Shown here in pieces: positions 3,878 to 58,391 of a stretch of DNA of 64,000 nt. Origin of the DNA: a virus; IMG/VR virus record IMGVR_UViG_3300022891_000002, positions 86,361-150,360 of that record; one strand, written 5' to 3'. The translations under genes were made by a program, and so were the position numbers. The notes beneath the pieces were generated by a model. It worked only from the letters and a program-made list of their open reading frames with translations, made no database searches and was not told the DNA's origin. Each line of letters begins with the position of its first letter. Positions within the stretch are counted from its first letter, which is position 1.

Positions 3878-5557
3878 ATGTACTACTCAGACAAATACTC
3901 GGAAATTCCAAACGGAATAGTTAATAAAGCAGCTACAGGTATAGGTTTAACCAGTTTTGCCTTAGAAAATGAAGTTCCGACCGTAGTTGTTACTCCCACA
4001 GTAGCAATGATTAAAAATAAGGTTTCCCAGTATCCAAACAATAGAAGATTAGATTCAGTAATAGGACTTTACCAAGGAGTTTCTTTAAATAGCATTAAAG
4101 ACTATATAGGAAAAACTACTGTCCCAAAGATAATGGTTACTTATGACAGTTTTTATAAAGTAGCTCCTTTAATAGATAGTAGTTACCAAATAATTGTGGA
4201 TGAGTTTTCTGAACTGCTAGACGCATATAACTACAGAAATAAAGCAATATCCAAGCTATTAATTGAAATTCAGAAATTTAATAGAGTCTCTTATGTATCA
4301 GCTACTCCAACTAAAACAGAATATTTACCTCCTCAGTTAAAAGAACTACCTTATACTACTTTAATCTGGGATGATTTAACCAAAATCAATATTGACTTAT
4401 TACATAAGAAGCGTCCTATTCAAACTGTTAGAGCTTTAATTAATAAATATAAAAGTGGTTTAGTAGAGATTAATGGAATAAAGAGTGAAGCAGGCTATTT
4501 CTTTGTTAACAGCGTTCGGATGATTAAAGAAATATGTGAGAAAGCCGAACTACTAAACTCGGAAGTAAGAATTATTTGTGCGGATACAGATAAGAATAAA
4601 CGGACATTAGGAGACTATGATATCTCTACTTCTCTTGACCCAGAGACTATGTTCACGTTTATTACTTCCTGTAGTTTTAAAGGATTAGATTTCTACAGTG
4701 AACGAGGAGTAGTCTTTGTAGTATCTAATAATACTAATACTCATACATTAGTAACTATAGACACTGACATTATCCAAATAGCAGGTAGAATAAGAAATCC
4801 AACAAATCCCTTTAGAAACTATCTATGTCATATCTTCAATATCAATCCTTTAAGTCTAACAAGAGAAGAGTTCGTAAGAGTAACTGAAGAAAAGATAAAG
4901 CAAAGTAATACTCTACTACAAGGATATAGTAAGCTTACTGATGAAGAAAGAGCCTTATTTCTATCTACTCAAAACTTAGAAAACTTCTATATTTCTGTTA
5001 CAGAAGACGGAGTTCCTTACTATGATGAGATGTTGTACTTATTAGATAAACGCAGATACGAAGATATAGCCCAAGTCTATAAAGATGGTTTATCTGTCAA
5101 TAGTTATTACTCCTCTCTAGATAAAGTTGATATCTTACCTTCTACTAAACTAGACATTGATTACCTAGTTAATAACTCTTTTTATTCTCTTTGCAAAACT
5201 GCTGTTGAAGGGAAAGGTGATTTAGAAGTTATCTACGAACAATTTCCTTTAATTAAAGAGGCTATAGAAAAGCTAGGAGTAGAAAGAGTTAAATGTTTAG
5301 GATTTAATAATACTAAAATACAACATGAAATCGACGACTACAATAAGAAAGACTCTGTTAGAACAGTTGTACTAAAAGAAATAGAAAGAGATAGGTTCTA
5401 TAGTTGTAAAGATATAAAGATAGCTCTTGGATATATTTATACTCGCTTAGGGGTACGTGCAACTGCTAAAGCTACGGACATCTTAGAATACTGTAACGCT
5501 AAACTTTGTTGTAAAAAAATAAATGATAAATCTGTGAAAGGTTATCTTGTAGAGTAA
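3878..5557 (+). CDS. SF2 helicase-like protein, origin-binding/replication initiator type (paralog 1)
   Basis: Degenerate Walker A (NKAATGIGLT), IIVDEFS, SAT, FFVNS, QIAGRIR; C-terminal helical/wHTH-like region ending AKATDI. Confidence 0.75.
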   Translation: MYYSDKYSEIPNGIVNKAATGIGLTSFALENEVPTVVVTPTVAMIKNKVSQYPNNRRLDSVIGLYQGVSLNSIKDYIGKTTVPKIMVTYDSFYKVAPLIDSSYQIIVDEFSELLDAYNYRNKAISKLLIEIQKFNRVSYVSATPTKTEYLPPQLKELPYTTLIWDDLTKINIDLLHKKRPIQTVRALINKYKSGLVEINGIKSEAGYFFVNSVRMIKEICEKAELLNSEVRIICADTDKNKRTLGDYDISTSLDPETMFTFITSCSFKGLDFYSERGVVFVVSNNTNTHTLVTIDTDIIQIAGRIRNPTNPFRNYLCHIFNINPLSLTREEFVRVTEEKIKQSNTLLQGYSKLTDEERALFLSTQNLENFYISVTEDGVPYYDEMLYLLDKRRYEDIAQVYKDGLSVNSYYSSLDKVDILPSTKLDIDYLVNNSFYSLCKTAVEGKGDLEVIYEQFPLIKEAIEKLGVERVKCLGFNNTKIQHEIDDYNKKDSVRTVVLKEIERDRFYSCKDIKIALGYIYTRLGVRATAKATDILEYCNAKLCCKKINDKSVKGYLVE

Positions 5558-5564
5558 GGTTACT

Positions 5565-5588
5565 GGGAGTTTTAGGACTCCCTTTCTT
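5565..5588 (+). terminator. Intrinsic terminator-like hairpin after helicase 1
   Basis: GGGAGT-tttagg-ACTCCC followed by TTTCTT. Confidence 0.6.
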
Positions 5589-5644
5589 ATCTACTTCTTT
5601 GGTATGTTAAAGTTTACAAAGGAGAAATAAACTATCAACTAATA

Positions 5645-6949
5645 ATGAAAACAAAACTACAACCTACCAGACAATTTGAAGAACAGTTATACACAACTAA
5701 TCATTCCTCTAAGATATCTAAGTTATCTGACTCTACTATTCAAGAAATTAGTTGGGAAGGTAAGTATACTGTAGATGACTTAATCCACTTCATTCACAAA
5801 GACCCAATAGCAAAAGCTTGCGTAGATGTAAAATGTTTGAGAGCTGCTAATACATTCGGTACTTATCAACATAGTAAACCAGATATTACGGACTTCATGC
5901 AAGATATGTTCGGTAATATGAGAGATACATTAAAGAAAAGTGTAGCTGAATTATCTATTGCTCCTGCTCTTGGTTTTTCTGTAGCTGAAATCAATTTCAA
6001 GATGGATAAAGAAGGATATTTAAAACTAGAAAGTATCTATCCATTAAGTTTAGAGAGAGTCAAATTTAAGGGTTCAAAAGGATATATTGAGTGGGTTCTT
6101 TATAATGACAGACATAAATCTAACATTCATATCCCATACAAGAAAGTCATTCATGTAACCAACTCTGCTGCTACTACATTCAACGACCCATTTGGAAATG
6201 CTGAGGCTGGACTGGCTTATCCATTTTGGAAGGCTAAAGTAGCTATTTTTGGAGACATGATTATTTCTACTAGAAACTTAGCTACTGGTATTTTAGTGGG
6301 AAGAGTTGATAGTGCTGCTACTATTAATGCTACAGTGACAGATGCTTATGGTAACACTCTAATGGGAAGAGACGGTCAACCTCTTCGGAAAAATGCAGCT
6401 CAAGTAATGTATGACAAGTTAAGTAATGTAGAAAACAACACAATTATTGTTACCGATAAAGCTAATGAGATTACCGCTCTTAATGTTCCTGATGGTAGTC
6501 AGTCATGGGATATCTCTCTTAATAGATTTGATAAACTAATTCATAGAGCATTTGGAGTTCCTCAATTAATCTTTGAAGAAGGTAGCGGTTCAATTGGAGT
6601 AGCAACACTATCAGTAAAACAATCTACTTTACTTGATGCGAATATAGAAGTTGTAGTAAATCAAATTCAAGACCAAATCATTGAGAAAATCTGTAAACCA
6701 ATAATTATTAACAACTTTGGTAAACAGAAAGATTACGGTAAATTTACTATTGATTCTTCTTCCGACCCAGGAGTAGAAATGCAGCAATTGCAAAACATAT
6801 TTACTGCGGTATCAATGGGAATTCTATCAGCAGATGACCCTGTAATAAATAATAGAATTAGAGGAATACTAGGACTTCCATTACAAACTGAACAAGAGAT
6901 AGAAGAAGCAAAAGCTCTGAAGCAAATAGAACAACAAAGCCAAATTTAA
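5645..6949 (+). CDS. Phage portal protein (DUF935 / Mu gp29-like)
   Basis: 434 aa; A..LGFSVAEI, IPYKKVIH, NDPFGNA, QIIEKICKPII..NFG patterns typical of this portal family. Confidence 0.7.
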   Translation: MKTKLQPTRQFEEQLYTTNHSSKISKLSDSTIQEISWEGKYTVDDLIHFIHKDPIAKACVDVKCLRAANTFGTYQHSKPDITDFMQDMFGNMRDTLKKSVAELSIAPALGFSVAEINFKMDKEGYLKLESIYPLSLERVKFKGSKGYIEWVLYNDRHKSNIHIPYKKVIHVTNSAATTFNDPFGNAEAGLAYPFWKAKVAIFGDMIISTRNLATGILVGRVDSAATINATVTDAYGNTLMGRDGQPLRKNAAQVMYDKLSNVENNTIIVTDKANEITALNVPDGSQSWDISLNRFDKLIHRAFGVPQLIFEEGSGSIGVATLSVKQSTLLDANIEVVVNQIQDQIIEKICKPIIINNFGKQKDYGKFTIDSSSDPGVEMQQLQNIFTAVSMGILSADDPVINNRIRGILGLPLQTEQEIEEAKALKQIEQQSQI

Positions 6950-15556: not shown

Positions 15557-15616
15557 TGTAGACATTTCTTGAAATCTGTGGACTATATTTAGTACAAATT
15601 TTAGAAAAAGTCTACA
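15557..15616. repeat. 60-bp imperfect palindrome (TG...CA)
   Basis: Left arm TGTAGACATTTCTTGAAAT versus reverse complement of right arm TGTAGACTTTTTCTAAAAT; intergenic. Confidence 0.7.
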
Positions 15617-15628
15617 CTCCACTATTGT

Positions 15629-16339
15629 TTAATACAAGTAGAATAGTGGATTAGCACACATATAATTACCAAAATCTGTATCTAAAATATCTAGTAACTT
15701 TTGTGGCACCACATCTTCCTCTCTAGCACAATACGTGTCCCCAAATAAATCCTCTGTTTCAAATTTAGATTTCTCATCTCTACTAAGTAGATAGGCTAAC
15801 CCTTTAGTATTTATTATTGCTATACAAAAATCAATCCACATTTCAGGATTAATTTCCAGCAGTTGACGTAACACTTTATTTACTACTTCTCTCGTTGCTT
15901 TTAGTTCTGACTGTTGGATAGATTCAATTATCTTAGTGTCAAAAGTAGTATAAGAAGAAATACTGTACGCACCTAACTTAAACAATTTACTCTCTATAGC
16001 AGTAGCTAAATGCTTTGGTACATCTTTATTACAATTACGTCCCCACTGTAACCAATAACGACTTTCTACATCTACTACATACTCTGTTCCCTTAATACTC
16101 ACAACAGGTAAACTAAGAAACTTTTTATGAGTATCAAATATATCTGCTCCTAATTCTTCTATTCTTTCGTCTACTAATTGTTCAAATTTCTTTTTTAGGT
16201 TAGATACGGTATCTGTAGTGAAATTATACTTGTACTGGTCTACTTTTACTAACTCAACAATTTCCCCTACTAGACAATTTCTATCTAAATCAGTTGTTAT
16301 TTTAAGAGTAAAACCTTCGTATCTTAGTGTATCAGTCAT
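15629..16339 (-). CDS. HicB-like module fused to a domain paralogous to 14166-14705
   Basis: LRYEGFTL...LVGEI...DTVSNLKKKFEQLVD, then the shared C-terminal domain. Confidence 0.7.
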   Translation of the reverse strand: MTDTLRYEGFTLKITTDLDRNCLVGEIVELVKVDQYKYNFTTDTVSNLKKKFEQLVDERIEELGADIFDTHKKFLSLPVVSIKGTEYVVDVESRYWLQWGRNCNKDVPKHLATAIESKLFKLGAYSISSYTTFDTKIIESIQQSELKATREVVNKVLRQLLEINPEMWIDFCIAIINTKGLAYLLSRDEKSKFETEDLFGDTYCAREEDVVPQKLLDILDTDFGNYMCANPLFYLY

Positions 16340-16357: not shown

Positions 16358-16419
16358 ACTGTTACTTTTTTATTATCAGCTAAATCCACTAAGCCCACAG
16401 ATTAATAAAAATTACCGCA
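16358..16419. repeat. Left hybrid palindromic site: arm A - 27 nt - arm B
   Basis: ACTGTTACTTTTTTATTA-N27-TAATAAAAATTACCGCA. Confidence 0.85.
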
Positions 16420-16430
16420 AATTATCTAGA

Positions 16431-16487
16431 GTTGCTACTTTTTAAATAATTTGTGATATACTATAAAGGTACACGAATTTACCGCAA
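16431..16487 (+). promoter_or_regulatory. Extended -10 promoter bracketed by partial copies of arms A and B
   Basis: TGaTATACT at 16454-16462; GTTGCTACTTTTT at 16431; TTACCGCA ending at 16486. Confidence 0.55.
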
Positions 16488-16491
16488 CTCA

Positions 16492-18279
16492 ATGATTATT
16501 ATCGACGCACCTCCTAATTCCCGTTATTGTTCAGAATTTATGACTGAACTGCCTAAAGGGATAATTGACAAACATGAAACTGGTGTAGGAGCATCAGTAT
16601 TAGCTCTTGAAGACCAAAATCCGTACATCTTAGCAGTTCCTACTATTGAGATTATCAGAAACAAAGTAGAGCAATATCCTAACTATAGAAGAGAAGAAAA
16701 GATATTTGGTTTTTATGGTGGAGTTAAAGAAAGAGATTTACTTTTCTATGCGAACTCTACTAAAATCCCAAAGATAATGGTTACTTATGATAGTTTTGAT
16801 AGAGTTTCTAAATTGCTATCTAGTGATAAAGATAAATATAGAGTTCTAGTAGATGAGTTCTCTGACTTATTAGATGCTTACTCTTATAGAGATGCAGCAA
16901 TTGACAGGTTACTTAATGCGGTTAAAGATTTTGATTATGTAACTTATATCTCGGCTACTCCTATTAAGTCTGAATACTACCCAGAATGTTTGAAGGGATT
17001 GGATGAGTATCAGATTAACTGGGGAGAATATACAAAAGTCAAAGTAGAAAGGAAGAAGACTAATAAACCTTACCAGTTAGCTTGTAATATTATTGAGGCG
17101 TATAAAGCTGCTGGGGATGAAGGTATTAAAATGCCTAACGGTCAGTATAGTAAGTCCGCTTATTTCTTTGTTAACTCCGTAAATTCAATTCTAAATATAA
17201 TAGAAGCTGCGGATTTACGTCCTAGTGAAGTTCGAGTTATTTGTGCTAATAACAAAGTTAACCAAAGCAAGATGGACTTATTTCAAATAGAAAAAGCACT
17301 TGACCCAGAGAAGAAATTCAACTTTATAACTTCTACGGCTTTTAAAGGATGTGACTTCTACTCCGAAACTGGAGTTATCTATGTAGTTAGCAATACTCAG
17401 AATAAGAACACTTTAATTTCTATTGACACTGATATCAGACAAATAGCTGGTAGAATTAGAACTCTTAGTAATCCTTTTAGGAAGGAAATTTATCATCTTT
17501 ACAATACTGACTCTAGCTTATTATCTCAGGAAGAGTTTGACGAATTAATTAAAACCAAGGTAGAGCAAACTACTAATCTACTATCTCTCTACCACAAAGG
17601 TAATGAATCTGAGCAGAAAGCTTTCTTAATAGATTGGGAGAGTAATACTAAATATGGTTACTCAGATGATAACTATATTAGTAAAAGTATTGATGGTGAA
17701 CTCTACTTCAATCACTATATGATGCTCAATGATAAGAGAAGATGGGAAATATCTAGTAACGTCTACAGAGATGGATTAAGTGTTAGAGAAGCTTATGTAG
17801 AAGCCGGATTTGAATTAGTAGCTAATGACCAGGACTTCGTTAACGTTCAAAATGAAAACAGTTTTATTCATAGACTAAGTAGTAAGTCTTTCAAATCTAA
17901 TTGTTTGAGCTATATTGATAATGAAAACGAGAGGGTCTACTTAGGAGATAGATTCCCTCTCATCAAAGAAAGTTATGAACAACTAGGAGCTGAGAGAATG
18001 AAAGCTGTCAACTATCTACCGGACAGACTTAAGAACGAGCTTAAGTTTAAGAACGTAGATATTCAACAGTGTATCAAATCTGAGCTAAGAAGACTACTAG
18101 CTGTAGGAGAGGTTTACACACTATCTCACCTAAAGACTGTAATTAACGATGTCTATACACGACTACACTTAAGCAAAAAAGGTAAAGCTAGTGATGTTAC
18201 CCAGTATTGCTCTACTAGAACTAAGAGTATTCGGATAGATGGAAAGACAGTTAAAGTAATGGAGATTTTAGAAGAATAA
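16492..18279 (+). CDS. SF2 helicase-like protein, origin-binding/replication initiator type (paralog 2)
   Basis: DKHETGVGAS, VLVDEFS, SAT, YFFVNS, QIAGRIR, C-terminal GKASDV; colinear with 3878-5557. ATG at 16492 preferred because the GTG at 16453 overlaps the -10 box. Confidence 0.75.
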   Translation: MIIIDAPPNSRYCSEFMTELPKGIIDKHETGVGASVLALEDQNPYILAVPTIEIIRNKVEQYPNYRREEKIFGFYGGVKERDLLFYANSTKIPKIMVTYDSFDRVSKLLSSDKDKYRVLVDEFSDLLDAYSYRDAAIDRLLNAVKDFDYVTYISATPIKSEYYPECLKGLDEYQINWGEYTKVKVERKKTNKPYQLACNIIEAYKAAGDEGIKMPNGQYSKSAYFFVNSVNSILNIIEAADLRPSEVRVICANNKVNQSKMDLFQIEKALDPEKKFNFITSTAFKGCDFYSETGVIYVVSNTQNKNTLISIDTDIRQIAGRIRTLSNPFRKEIYHLYNTDSSLLSQEEFDELIKTKVEQTTNLLSLYHKGNESEQKAFLIDWESNTKYGYSDDNYISKSIDGELYFNHYMMLNDKRRWEISSNVYRDGLSVREAYVEAGFELVANDQDFVNVQNENSFIHRLSSKSFKSNCLSYIDNENERVYLGDRFPLIKESYEQLGAERMKAVNYLPDRLKNELKFKNVDIQQCIKSELRRLLAVGEVYTLSHLKTVINDVYTRLHLSKKGKASDVTQYCSTRTKSIRIDGKTVKVMEILEE

Positions 18280-18280
18280 C

Positions 18281-18342
18281 TGCGGTAATTTTTATAAACG
18301 TCTATGACTCGTATGCCCAGAGATTAATAAAAAAGTAGCAGT
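18281..18342. repeat. Right hybrid palindromic site: arm B' - 27 nt - arm A'
   Basis: TGCGGTAATTTTTATAA-N27-TAATAAAAAAGTAGCAGT, starting one base after the helicase stop codon. Confidence 0.85.
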
Positions 18343-18344
18343 TA

Positions 18345-18416
18345 GGAGTGATAGGTTATTATTCAAGATATGTTTAGATGTTTCTAAATTTAACTCAAAT
18401 AATAGTCTACCACTCT
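18345..18416. repeat. Imperfect palindrome of about 64-70 bp
   Basis: GGAGTGATAGGTTATTATTCAAGAT versus reverse complement AGAGTGGTAGACTATTATTTGAGTT; shares GTCTAC(C)ACTC with the 15557 element. Confidence 0.6.
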
Positions 18417-57716: not shown

Positions 57717-58391
57717 TTATTCTTCTTCCTTTACTAATGACCAGCCCTTAGCAGATTTTCTTCTTCCGCTTATTAAATGACCAATTTCATAATGTTTTAA
57801 ACCAAAAGTATCTACGAATTCTTTTTGAAACATAGTAACTGTCCCATGAGTTTTATGGCTTAGTGTAACTATCTTCTTAGGTTTACAATTCCTCTTAGTA
57901 GTAACTTTTACGTACTCATCTTTGTTTTCTGCTAGAACCCAACCTTTTAAGCACTTATTTCTTTTACTTAGCAGCCACCTAACGTCAGCTAAATCAGGAT
58001 ATAGACTAGCTAATTCTGCTCTAGTACTAGATATAGTACCATAAGAGGGATGATATAGACTTACAATTTCAGGATTGTAGCTAGGATTGGCTTCTCCTTC
58101 AAAGGAATTATCTGCTAAAGTGTTGTAACCTTTGAGAGGATTGCAAGTATCTAAATCTGCAATAAAATACTTTTCATAGAAATCTACTTGGTCATACTCG
58201 ACTTCCTTTAGGACGTACCATTTCCAAAACTCAGAAGAATAACATCTAAGAGCTTTAGCAAATTTATGATTCTGTTTAACGGTTTTTCTAAAATGTTCTT
58301 CCTTTCTAATATCTAGCGACCTGATAGTTCTGCCCACGTACTTCTTACCACTGAGAATATTTTCAGCACAATAGATAACAGCAGTAGGCAT
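57717..58391 (-). CDS. GIY-YIG homing endonuclease
   Basis: VIY...N...GKKYVGRT, R..EH, E..FI, GYN; repeated KGW C-terminal DNA-binding units. Confidence 0.85.
   Translation of the reverse strand: MPTAVIYCAENILSGKKYVGRTIRSLDIRKEEHFRKTVKQNHKFAKALRCYSSEFWKWYVLKEVEYDQVDFYEKYFIADLDTCNPLKGYNTLADNSFEGEANPSYNPEIVSLYHPSYGTISSTRAELASLYPDLADVRWLLSKRNKCLKGWVLAENKDEYVKVTTKRNCKPKKIVTLSHKTHGTVTMFQKEFVDTFGLKHYEIGHLISGRRKSAKGWSLVKEEE

Follow-up and report, generated by a model that had tools for sequence, protein, structure and literature searches.

Why does a lone helicase-like gene in a viral genome lie between two matched sites, and what might the resulting unit do? We examined this question for positions 16358-18342 of a 64,000-nucleotide stretch of viral DNA, positions 86,361 to 150,360 of the IMG/VR record IMGVR_UViG_3300022891_000002 (hereafter the window; positions are those of the window unless the genome is named, and negative ones lie before its first nucleotide). 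A sequence-only reading had described this segment as a helicase-only cassette with attL/attR-like arm exchange at its ends, and had proposed a minimal replicon, or selfish initiator-plus-origin unit, inserted into an origin-like palindrome of the phage. Our analysis indicated that the stretch is a real self-contained unit and that sites around the gene are a family trait. We put at about 0.5 the probability that 16358-18342 is a portable one-gene module of the Rep-ori type, in which an initiator-helicase is carried together with its cognate origin/operator sites.

Matched sites around a single gene

Both sites lie, letter for letter, where the sequence-only reading had placed them, in the order A-N27-B on the left (U1) and B'-N27-A' on the right (U3) (Table 1). 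The pairing it had claimed was also recovered: a repeat finder reported inverted pairs of 18 nt, 94% complementary, for both A/A' and B/B', and for the equal spacers a direct repeat in the same direction, GCCCA(C/G)AGATTAATAAAAA, which matches at 18 of 19 positions and lengthens to 45 nt (73%), with a spacing of 1922. The spacer cores of U1 and U3 have the same orientation, the arms of each site stand 60 bp apart with their T/A tracts facing inward, and U3 begins 2 nt past the stop codon of the helicase-like gene. One long open reading frame (ORF) occupies the cassette and no recombinase lies inside it, again as described.

Table 1 Features of the window that bear on the helicase-like gene and its sites
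Feature	Position	Strand	Description
Site U1	16358-16419	+	Left cassette limit; outer arm A 16358-16375 (ACTGTTAC plus T tract), 27-nt spacer with core GCCCACAGAT, inner arm B 16403-16419 (A tract plus TTACCGCA)
Site U2 (promoter/leader)	16431-16491	+	Design like that of U1 and U3
Helicase-like gene	16492-18279	+	595 amino acids; sole long ORF inside the cassette
Site U3	18281-18342	+	Right cassette limit; inner arm B' 18281-18297 (TGCGGTAA plus T tract), 27-nt spacer with core GCCCAGAGAT, outer arm A' 18325-18342 (A tract plus GTAGCAGT)
Solo site X	15557-15616		60-bp full palindrome TGTAGAC...GTCTACA with the geometry of U1 and U3
Hairpin Y	18346-18415		AT-rich palindrome of about 66 nt between U3 and a convergent 125-amino-acid gene
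Second paralogue	3878-5557	+	559 amino acids, 39% identity; homologous promoter/leader, no flanks of the U1/U3 type

The paired-site observation is exact and does not reflect chance. Both arm patterns and the 19-nt core occurred with no mismatch only at U1 and U3 in the 64-kb window, shuffles gave 0.06 core copies as the chance expectation, and the exact sub-motifs were unique in the whole 150,360-bp IMG/VR contig. A general promoter or terminator class was accordingly rejected, the arm and core motifs being unique in 150 kb and TACTTTTT not enriched. Across the genome, neither 50-71-bp palindromes nor TG...CA sites with T/A tracts were in excess, and a minimum-free-energy scan of hairpins was dominated by GC-rich coding hairpins. 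Scanning IMG/VR for the site core returned the sister phage and chance matches only, with no solo or hybrid sites.

The earlier picture needed correction in two respects. The arms do pair better between the sites than within them, but to call each site alone a poor palindrome was only partly right: the inner TTTTTATTA/TAATAAAAA tracts pair within U1 and within U3, and U3 additionally pairs AACTGC with GCAGTT (DNA fold z -2.9). Similarly, U1 and U3 are real, but the four-arm, two-site picture had overlooked a site over the promoter (U2), a solo site (X) and a hairpin (Y).

At U2, the left arm, GTTGCTAC plus a T tract, overlaps the -35 element TTGCTA (16432-16437), which is followed after a 19-nt spacer by the extended -10 element TATACT (16457-16462) with its TG at 16454-16455. 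The right arm, TTACCGCAAC, stops 5 nt short of the ATG, and a copy of the inner arm TTACCGCA stands at 16479-16486. TGTG(Y)TATACT was kept in all clade-A orthologues. A simple promoter scan did not call this promoter because of its 19-nt spacer.

The solo site X, U1 and U3 each measure exactly 60 bp from TG to CA, and ATCT[GC]TGG[GA]C occurs in these three sites only in the 150-kb contig. The core of X, ATCTGTGGAC, is reversed relative to U1/U3; X forms a DNA hairpin on the minus strand (z -4.6) and was kept in the sister phage L004 at 5461-5521 (L-numbers denote the loci compared). Hairpin Y (fold z -3.1) was also kept in L004, and 30 nt of it are 70% complementary to X, its right half resembling the inverse of X. 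Y may be a two-way terminator; a terminator scan found nothing canonical there. Between the inverted X and U1 lies a 236-amino-acid (aa) gene on the minus strand (15629-16339) with a HicB-like N-terminus (PHROG 9151, E 2e-5), whose slot is occupied by a 100-aa relative in the sister phage.

The helicase-like protein and the arms of its sites

The start codon was placed at ATG 16492 rather than GTG 16453 because the N-termini of homologues are conserved (MxxxIxAP..S.YCSEFM). On its predicted structure the protein is initiator-like, with a superfamily 2 (SF2) core and a C-terminal winged helix: two RecA-like SF2 domains (residues 1-340) are followed by a helical region and the winged helix (residues about 536-595) in an AlphaFold model with a predicted local distance difference test (pLDDT) score of 86. 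Comparison of the model by VIA-align gave Z 20.5 to eIF4A1 (319 aligned residues, root-mean-square deviation 4.2), about 20 to DbpA, and 17-20 to many DEAD-box, RecQ, DinG and other SF2 chains. The C-terminal 256 residues folded alone again gave pLDDT 86 with the winged helix at the end, and the best matches of the winged helix were DNA-binding domains, namely that of RFX (Z 6.2) and the P4 origin-binding domain 1ka8 (Z 4.5 over 64 residues). The 595-aa protein had no match in Pfam, PHROG, NCBIfam, PADLOC or a PDB-sequence profile search, and none among defence-system models; a blastn comparison with known phages also yielded no match.

Motif I reads TGVGAS, and the family consensus, TGxGxT/S, lacks the Walker-A lysine of GxGKT, so that ATPase activity is only putative. 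K27, six residues upstream of motif I, was invariant in 35 sequences, and the motifs DEFS (D121, E122), SAT (154-156) and QIAGRIR (317-323; Q317/R321/R323) were invariant in the family alignment.

We then compared the protein with the arms of its sites in related phages. The inner arms were alike within a lineage and unlike between lineages (CCGCA, TCTACA, GTAAACA, GTAACAC and TGTCAA), and the winged helix was both the most diverged part of the protein and the part that tracked arm type across 10 orthologues. CCGCA-type arms stand right of U1, right of U2 and left of U3 in the window, L004, L039 and L005, with generic outer arms TGTnnAC; the winged helices of L039 and L005 were 60-74% identical to that of the window protein. 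Identity fell to 48-55% in L040-L042, which have GTAAACA arms. In L006, with TCTACA arms, it was 87-98% over residues 1-300 and 50% over 536-595. All arms are of one type in L040-L042 and L006, and U1 and U3 are plain direct repeats there. From this covariation, the winged helix most likely recognizes the lineage-specific inner arms around its own gene.

A protein from another phage bears on the same domain. A 263-aa ORF in IMGVR_UViG_3300027850_000003 (L020:4624-5415, minus strand) carries a GIY-YIG domain at residues 13-85 (Pfam E 2e-9), and its residues 89-246 are 64% identical to residues 424-591, the C-terminal 168 aa, of the L033 helicase. Fusion of a GIY-YIG domain to a helicase-type C-terminal part indicated that this part is a portable DNA-targeting module. 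The 3' ends of the fusion gene and of a convergent class-2 helicase paralogue overlap by 57 nt.

The position of terminators separated DNA-level from RNA-level roles of U3. A terminator stands between the stop codon and U3 in L012 and after U3 in L005, L006 and L039, and its place ahead of U3 in L012 argues for a role of the site in DNA and against one in the 3' untranslated region. Pairing in the mRNA of the leader arm with the arm after the stop codon, that is, between the 5' and 3' untranslated regions, was rejected on the same ground and because mismatches were uncompensated.

Limits, positions and relatives of the unit

Similarity between cassettes from different gene contexts ran from the outer arm of U1 to the outer arm of U3, and these arms, A and A', were the limits in at least 8 gene contexts, which bears out the view of a self-contained unit. 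Orthologues with 74-83% aa identity occupy map positions other than that of the window gene. On the map of this genome, the L042 cassette lies between genes at -10.3k and -9.97k, the L012 cassette between -30.7k and -30.4k, the L040 cassette between -30.7k and 20.5k, and the L033 cassette between -4k/-12k and 33.7k. A fixed syntenic position (ThyX < hel < dUTPase) was considered and overturned by further orthologues.

Relatives that lack the cassette at a given locus, which the sequence-only reading had suggested looking for, do exist, since this genome itself is without the cassette of L042. Between flanks of 82-84% DNA identity, 2,132 nt in L042 stand opposite 45 nt here (-10016..-9972), a clean presence/absence in which the L042 insert reaches beyond U1 and U3 by 41 and 84 nt. 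The 45 nt contain no palindrome and no 60-bp site, and no consistent target-site duplication was seen in 8 junction pairs. The locus of the L012 and L040 cassettes corresponds in this genome to about -30700..-30640, which holds just a terminator and, after it, ATTTTTATGTCAAC; this motif resembles an L012-type half-site and may be a remnant or a preferred junction. These comparisons showed that the unit is inherited with its limits at the outer arms and at different places in related phages.

The sites themselves follow a common design. Seventeen U1/U3 sites from 9 lineages of the window-gene clade (74-95% aa identity) aligned without gaps at a fixed 60-bp geometry, with the layout TG arm, T tract, tCTA, C.A.AgATTaaT, A (or T) tract, GT...CA, and the direction of the spacer core was that of the gene in all 17. 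An apparent inversion of the U3 spacer in L005 was set aside, as the alignment fits equally a direct copy without the right core.

Beyond this clade, the family has hundreds of members in metagenomes; a metagenome scan for loci yielded 6 only. Homologues had been expected to have similar flanks, and we compared the 160 nt before each ATG with the 110 nt after the stop codon, taking the 95th percentile of cross-locus pairs as threshold. Direct or inverted repeats above it were found in the own flanks of 15 of 34 non-redundant homologous loci, among them a 61-nt inverted repeat (L017), one matching at 28/29 (L016) and direct repeats of 50-59 nt (L012, L015, L018). This genome has three paralogues (16492-18279, 3878-5557 and genome 19462-21219) and a related 130-kb phage has five. 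In the third one here (585 aa, 31% identity), the stop codon is followed directly by about 60 nt of the promoter site in inverted form. The second stands directly upstream, on the same strand, of a Mu-type portal gene (5645-6949; PF06074, E 5e-13), and the two form a plus-strand island (3878-6949) in a minus-strand region.

GIY-YIG genes also occur beside members of the family. One (genome 21327-21767) begins about 100 nt downstream of the third paralogue, the pair spanning about -66898..-64593, and the same pair was found at the orthologous locus in L017 (L017:4946-5242). No endonuclease gene adjoins the window cassette. GIY-YIG genes directly after helicase paralogues, here and in L017, make homing-type gene conversion a plausible driver, and GIY-YIG homing endonucleases nearby, or ordinary phage recombination, are enough to explain movement of the module. 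A second GIY-YIG ORF in the window (57717-58391, minus strand, 224 aa) has a C-terminal part without similarity to the helicase family.

More distant homologues were found outside phages. In two Pseudanabaena genomes (L043:4607-7746 and L044:4238-7749), a homologue with 44% identity lies directly after a tyrosine integrase (Arm-DNA-bind_2 plus Phage_integrase), with the motif TACAGAAAAA before its ATG and the complement after its stop codon. The islands, of about 6-9 kb, lie amid housekeeping genes, share a 228-aa gene with a weak MotA/ZorA-like match and a 101-aa gene, and may be satellite-like integrative elements. Full-length homologues with 23-26% identity were present on 16 Acinetobacter plasmids. 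On the complete 35-kb plasmid NZ_CP123920.1 of Acinetobacter bereziniae (L070/L071, 13969-21000), the homologue stands beside a parA-like ATPase gene and downstream of an iteron-like array, in which AAAAAAGTGTA occurs about six times and in both orientations, and of a 245-bp repeat present in 5.3 copies; neither a typed replicon nor an annotated Rep is recorded for this plasmid. In phage Phab24, the 0.9-kb gap ahead of the homologue contains the motif TACACATA three times.

Two published replication systems were rejected as counterparts: the replication region of the Acinetobacter NDM plasmid of PMC11142715 is a different region without a helicase, and in cyanobacterial plasmids CyRepA, which includes a DEXDc domain, is built differently, as DUF3854 plus DEXDc (PMC10079941).

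Readings of the unit

The initiator-like protein, the covariation of arms with the winged helix, and homologues in integrase islands and next to parA make an initiator-plus-origin unit a reasonable reading, and to this extent the sequence-only proposal held up. In the Rep-ori type reading that we favour, the protein would bind U1, U2 and U3, and the sites would act as origins. The inner arm TTACCGCA would provide the contacts, standing right of U1 and right of U2 before the ATG, with its complement left of U3 after the stop codon. Binding at U2 would bracket the -35 and -10 elements and could bring about autoregulation, while binding at U1 or U3 would set the putative ATPase core over the spacer between the T/A tracts for loading or melting of DNA. 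U1 and U3, each of which has an AT-rich spacer between opposed arms at a distance of 60 bp, would correspond to origins of the Rep-ori design, and the protein would act like the Rep of staphylococcal pathogenicity islands (SaPIs) with the ori behind its gene, like P4 alpha, or like UL9 of herpes simplex virus 1 (HSV-1) at the inverted boxes in oriS.

Among worked examples, the SaPI comes closest. Its Rep is a self-loading initiator helicase that recognizes short repeats through a C-terminal winged helix. The ori follows directly on rep, with iterons in opposite orientations on the two sides of an AT-rich centre, and Rep-ori pairs are cognate and differ between elements (PMC9371898). The window module shares the helicase with a winged helix, the site just after the gene and the opposed repeats around AT-rich DNA; a SaPI also has an integrase, as do the Pseudanabaena islands. 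The two differ in that SaPI Rep is a hexameric SF3/AAA+ protein, whereas the window protein has an SF2 two-RecA core without the Walker-A lysine. Moreover, the window sites flank the gene left and right and also cover its promoter, with two arms per 60-bp site in place of 6-12 iterons, and the window module resides inside phage genomes in 2-5 diverged copies.

UL9 and oriS offer a second likeness, in that an SF2 helicase whose DNA-binding domain is a distinct C-terminal unit acts on two inverted boxes flanking an AT-rich spacer. The UL9 complex 9hgj was among the whole-chain fold matches (rank 22, TM-score 0.42), at the general level of the SF2 fold, and no sequence relationship of UL9 to the window protein was detected. 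In UL9 the GKT motif is normal, and the sites that it binds do not enclose its gene. P4 alpha resembles the window protein as a helicase-containing initiator with a C-terminal winged helix on direct and inverted octamers, but it combines a primase with an SF3 helicase, and the P4 structural match was weak and typical of winged helices generally.

In iteron replicons (P1 RepA with incC/incA, F RepE, pSC101), initiator sites lie upstream, at the origin and the autoregulated promoter, and downstream of the gene. Inverted half-site operators overlap the promoter, the iterons are 17-22-bp direct repeats, and the initiators, small proteins with two winged helices, lack a helicase core. The window module is like these in having sites upstream at the promoter and downstream, and differs in its helicase core.

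Several observations weigh against the Rep-ori type reading. GC skew showed no origin signal and followed gene orientation only, and three modules here and five in a relative are an odd number for origins. The Walker-A lysine is absent (TGVGAS), though K27, D121-E122 and Q317/R321/R323 are invariant, and the matches of the winged helix are weak (Z at most 6.2). The binding of a winged helix to the inner arms leaves the outer arms and the conserved spacer core unexplained, and common ancestry accounts in part for the way arms and winged helix vary together. In the most distant homologues, repeats in the own flanks did not reach significance. Finally, Acinetobacter plasmids can conceal unannotated replication regions (PMC11142715), so that the missing annotated Rep on NZ_CP123920.1 proves little and the plasmid context is suggestive only.

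Of the alternatives, the one that fared best takes the sites as control elements only, that is, as operators or insulators of an autonomous moron, bound by its own product or another regulator, while the protein works elsewhere (for example in repair, recombination or transcription) and the unit is shuffled passively. U2 does bracket a conserved extended -10 promoter, and in other paralogue classes the downstream site copies the promoter site, directly in L014 and L022 and inverted in L016, L017 and the third paralogue. The gene is also often antiparallel to its neighbours and is followed by terminators. Morons and free-standing homing genes are similarly autonomous promoter-gene-(terminator) units, often antiparallel, and patchy in presence, position and copy number; however, they are without matched, co-varying sites at both ends, and the window protein is not a nuclease. 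U1 and U3 have no usable -10 at the U2 position, and since the motifs occur nowhere else in 150 kb they do not form a promoter class, which counts against this explanation. Passive shuffling, moreover, does not predict limits precise to a few nt in 8 contexts, and the integrase-island and plasmid par-adjacent contexts go unexplained. We therefore consider control alone unlikely.

The crossover proposed in the sequence-only reading holds that a B'-spacer-B circle recombines within the spacer with an A-spacer-A' palindrome of the phage to form hybrid attL (A-spacer-B) and attR (B'-spacer-A') sites, the helicase-like protein or another enzyme exchanging the strands. In its favour, arm pairing is better between the sites (17/18, with an exact 15/15 for ATAAAAATTACCGCA) than inside either one, the spacers are direct repeats, and four lineages have the specific arm at U1-right and U3-left with generic outer arms. 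The cassette limits are precise with no target duplication seen, and Y425 and several arginines are invariant in the family. X, with generic arms on both sides and the same geometry and core, is the only item of the predicted empty-site form, but it does not lie at a known empty locus. The one clean empty locus, opposite the L042 insert, is without a palindrome, and the L042 insert exceeds U1/U3 by its 41 and 84 nt; insertion into an origin-like palindrome of the form A-spacer-A' was not borne out.

Other lineages fit the crossover no better. With arms of one type and plain direct repeats in L040-L042 and L006, no hybrid site can be told apart there; A/A' pairing is lost in L039 (an 83% orthologue), and B/B' complementarity decays to about 11/17, counted by eye, in the 95% sister phage. 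No PF00589 or PF00239 match to a tyrosine or serine recombinase was found in the 150-kb contig, which may be incomplete, while control genomes were positive, and the helicase-like protein has no recombinase-like fold. To our knowledge, a 27-nt spacer is far longer than the crossover regions of Cre/lox, Xer/dif and serine integrase sites, which also counts against this scheme, as does the failure of the IMG/VR scan to find solo or hybrid sites. Together, the arm types, the lost pairing and the absent recombinase indicated that crossover is not a rule of the family, and the attL/attR reading is unsupported as a rule; even for this cassette we regard it as rather improbable.

A more speculative idea, to which we give still less credence, is that these are selfish single-gene elements of a new kind, made of an initiator plus ends, which would actively insert into and leave X-like 60-bp palindromes in phage genomes. 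The helicase-like protein or GIY-YIG partners would break and join the DNA, and extra origins would favour the carrier in mixed infections.

We think it very unlikely that homing accounts for the unit as a whole. Here the 60-bp sites would be, or contain, GIY-YIG targets, and enzymes with the DNA-binding domain of the helicase would cut cassette-free genomes, whose repair would copy the cassette. The GIY-YIG genes directly after helicase paralogues here (genome 21327-21767) and in L017, the L020 fusion, and the patchy positions and copy numbers of the family agree with this. Against it stand the lack of an endonuclease gene next to the window cassette and the fact that homing explains spread but not the upkeep of three matched sites around every gene.

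Two mobile-element classes were dismissed. For a DDE transposon or insertion sequence, the outer arms are inverted and run from TG to CA, but there is no consistent duplication in the 8 junction pairs and no RNase-H-like domain in the protein. Integron attC sites (59-base elements) are likewise imperfect palindromes of about 60 bp between genes, of fixed geometry and variable sequence, comparable to the order X, 236-aa gene, U1, helicase, U3; in contrast to them, the window cassette has its own promoter, its sites are found only around this gene family, and there is no tyrosine recombinase or IntI and no RYYYAAC...GTTRRRY in X, U1 or U3.

The unit is probably a variant of the known Rep-ori kind, in which the gene for an initiator is carried along with the sites cognate to it. 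If the Rep-ori type reading is true, the family would constitute an undescribed group of replication starters of the SF2 type, guided by a winged helix and present in bacteria as well as in their viruses, each member a 2-kb unit with its own binding sites that moves among phages, integrase islands and probably plasmids. It would supply candidate origins for a large set of AT-rich phages that are uncultured and have Nodularia phages as distant relatives, and Acinetobacter plasmids without a typed replicon would gain a possible replication protein. The matched protein/site pairs would form a natural series in which to study the evolution of DNA-binding specificity. The GIY-YIG fusion of the same DNA-binding domain ties the origin modules to homing endonucleases, and could explain how the modules spread.

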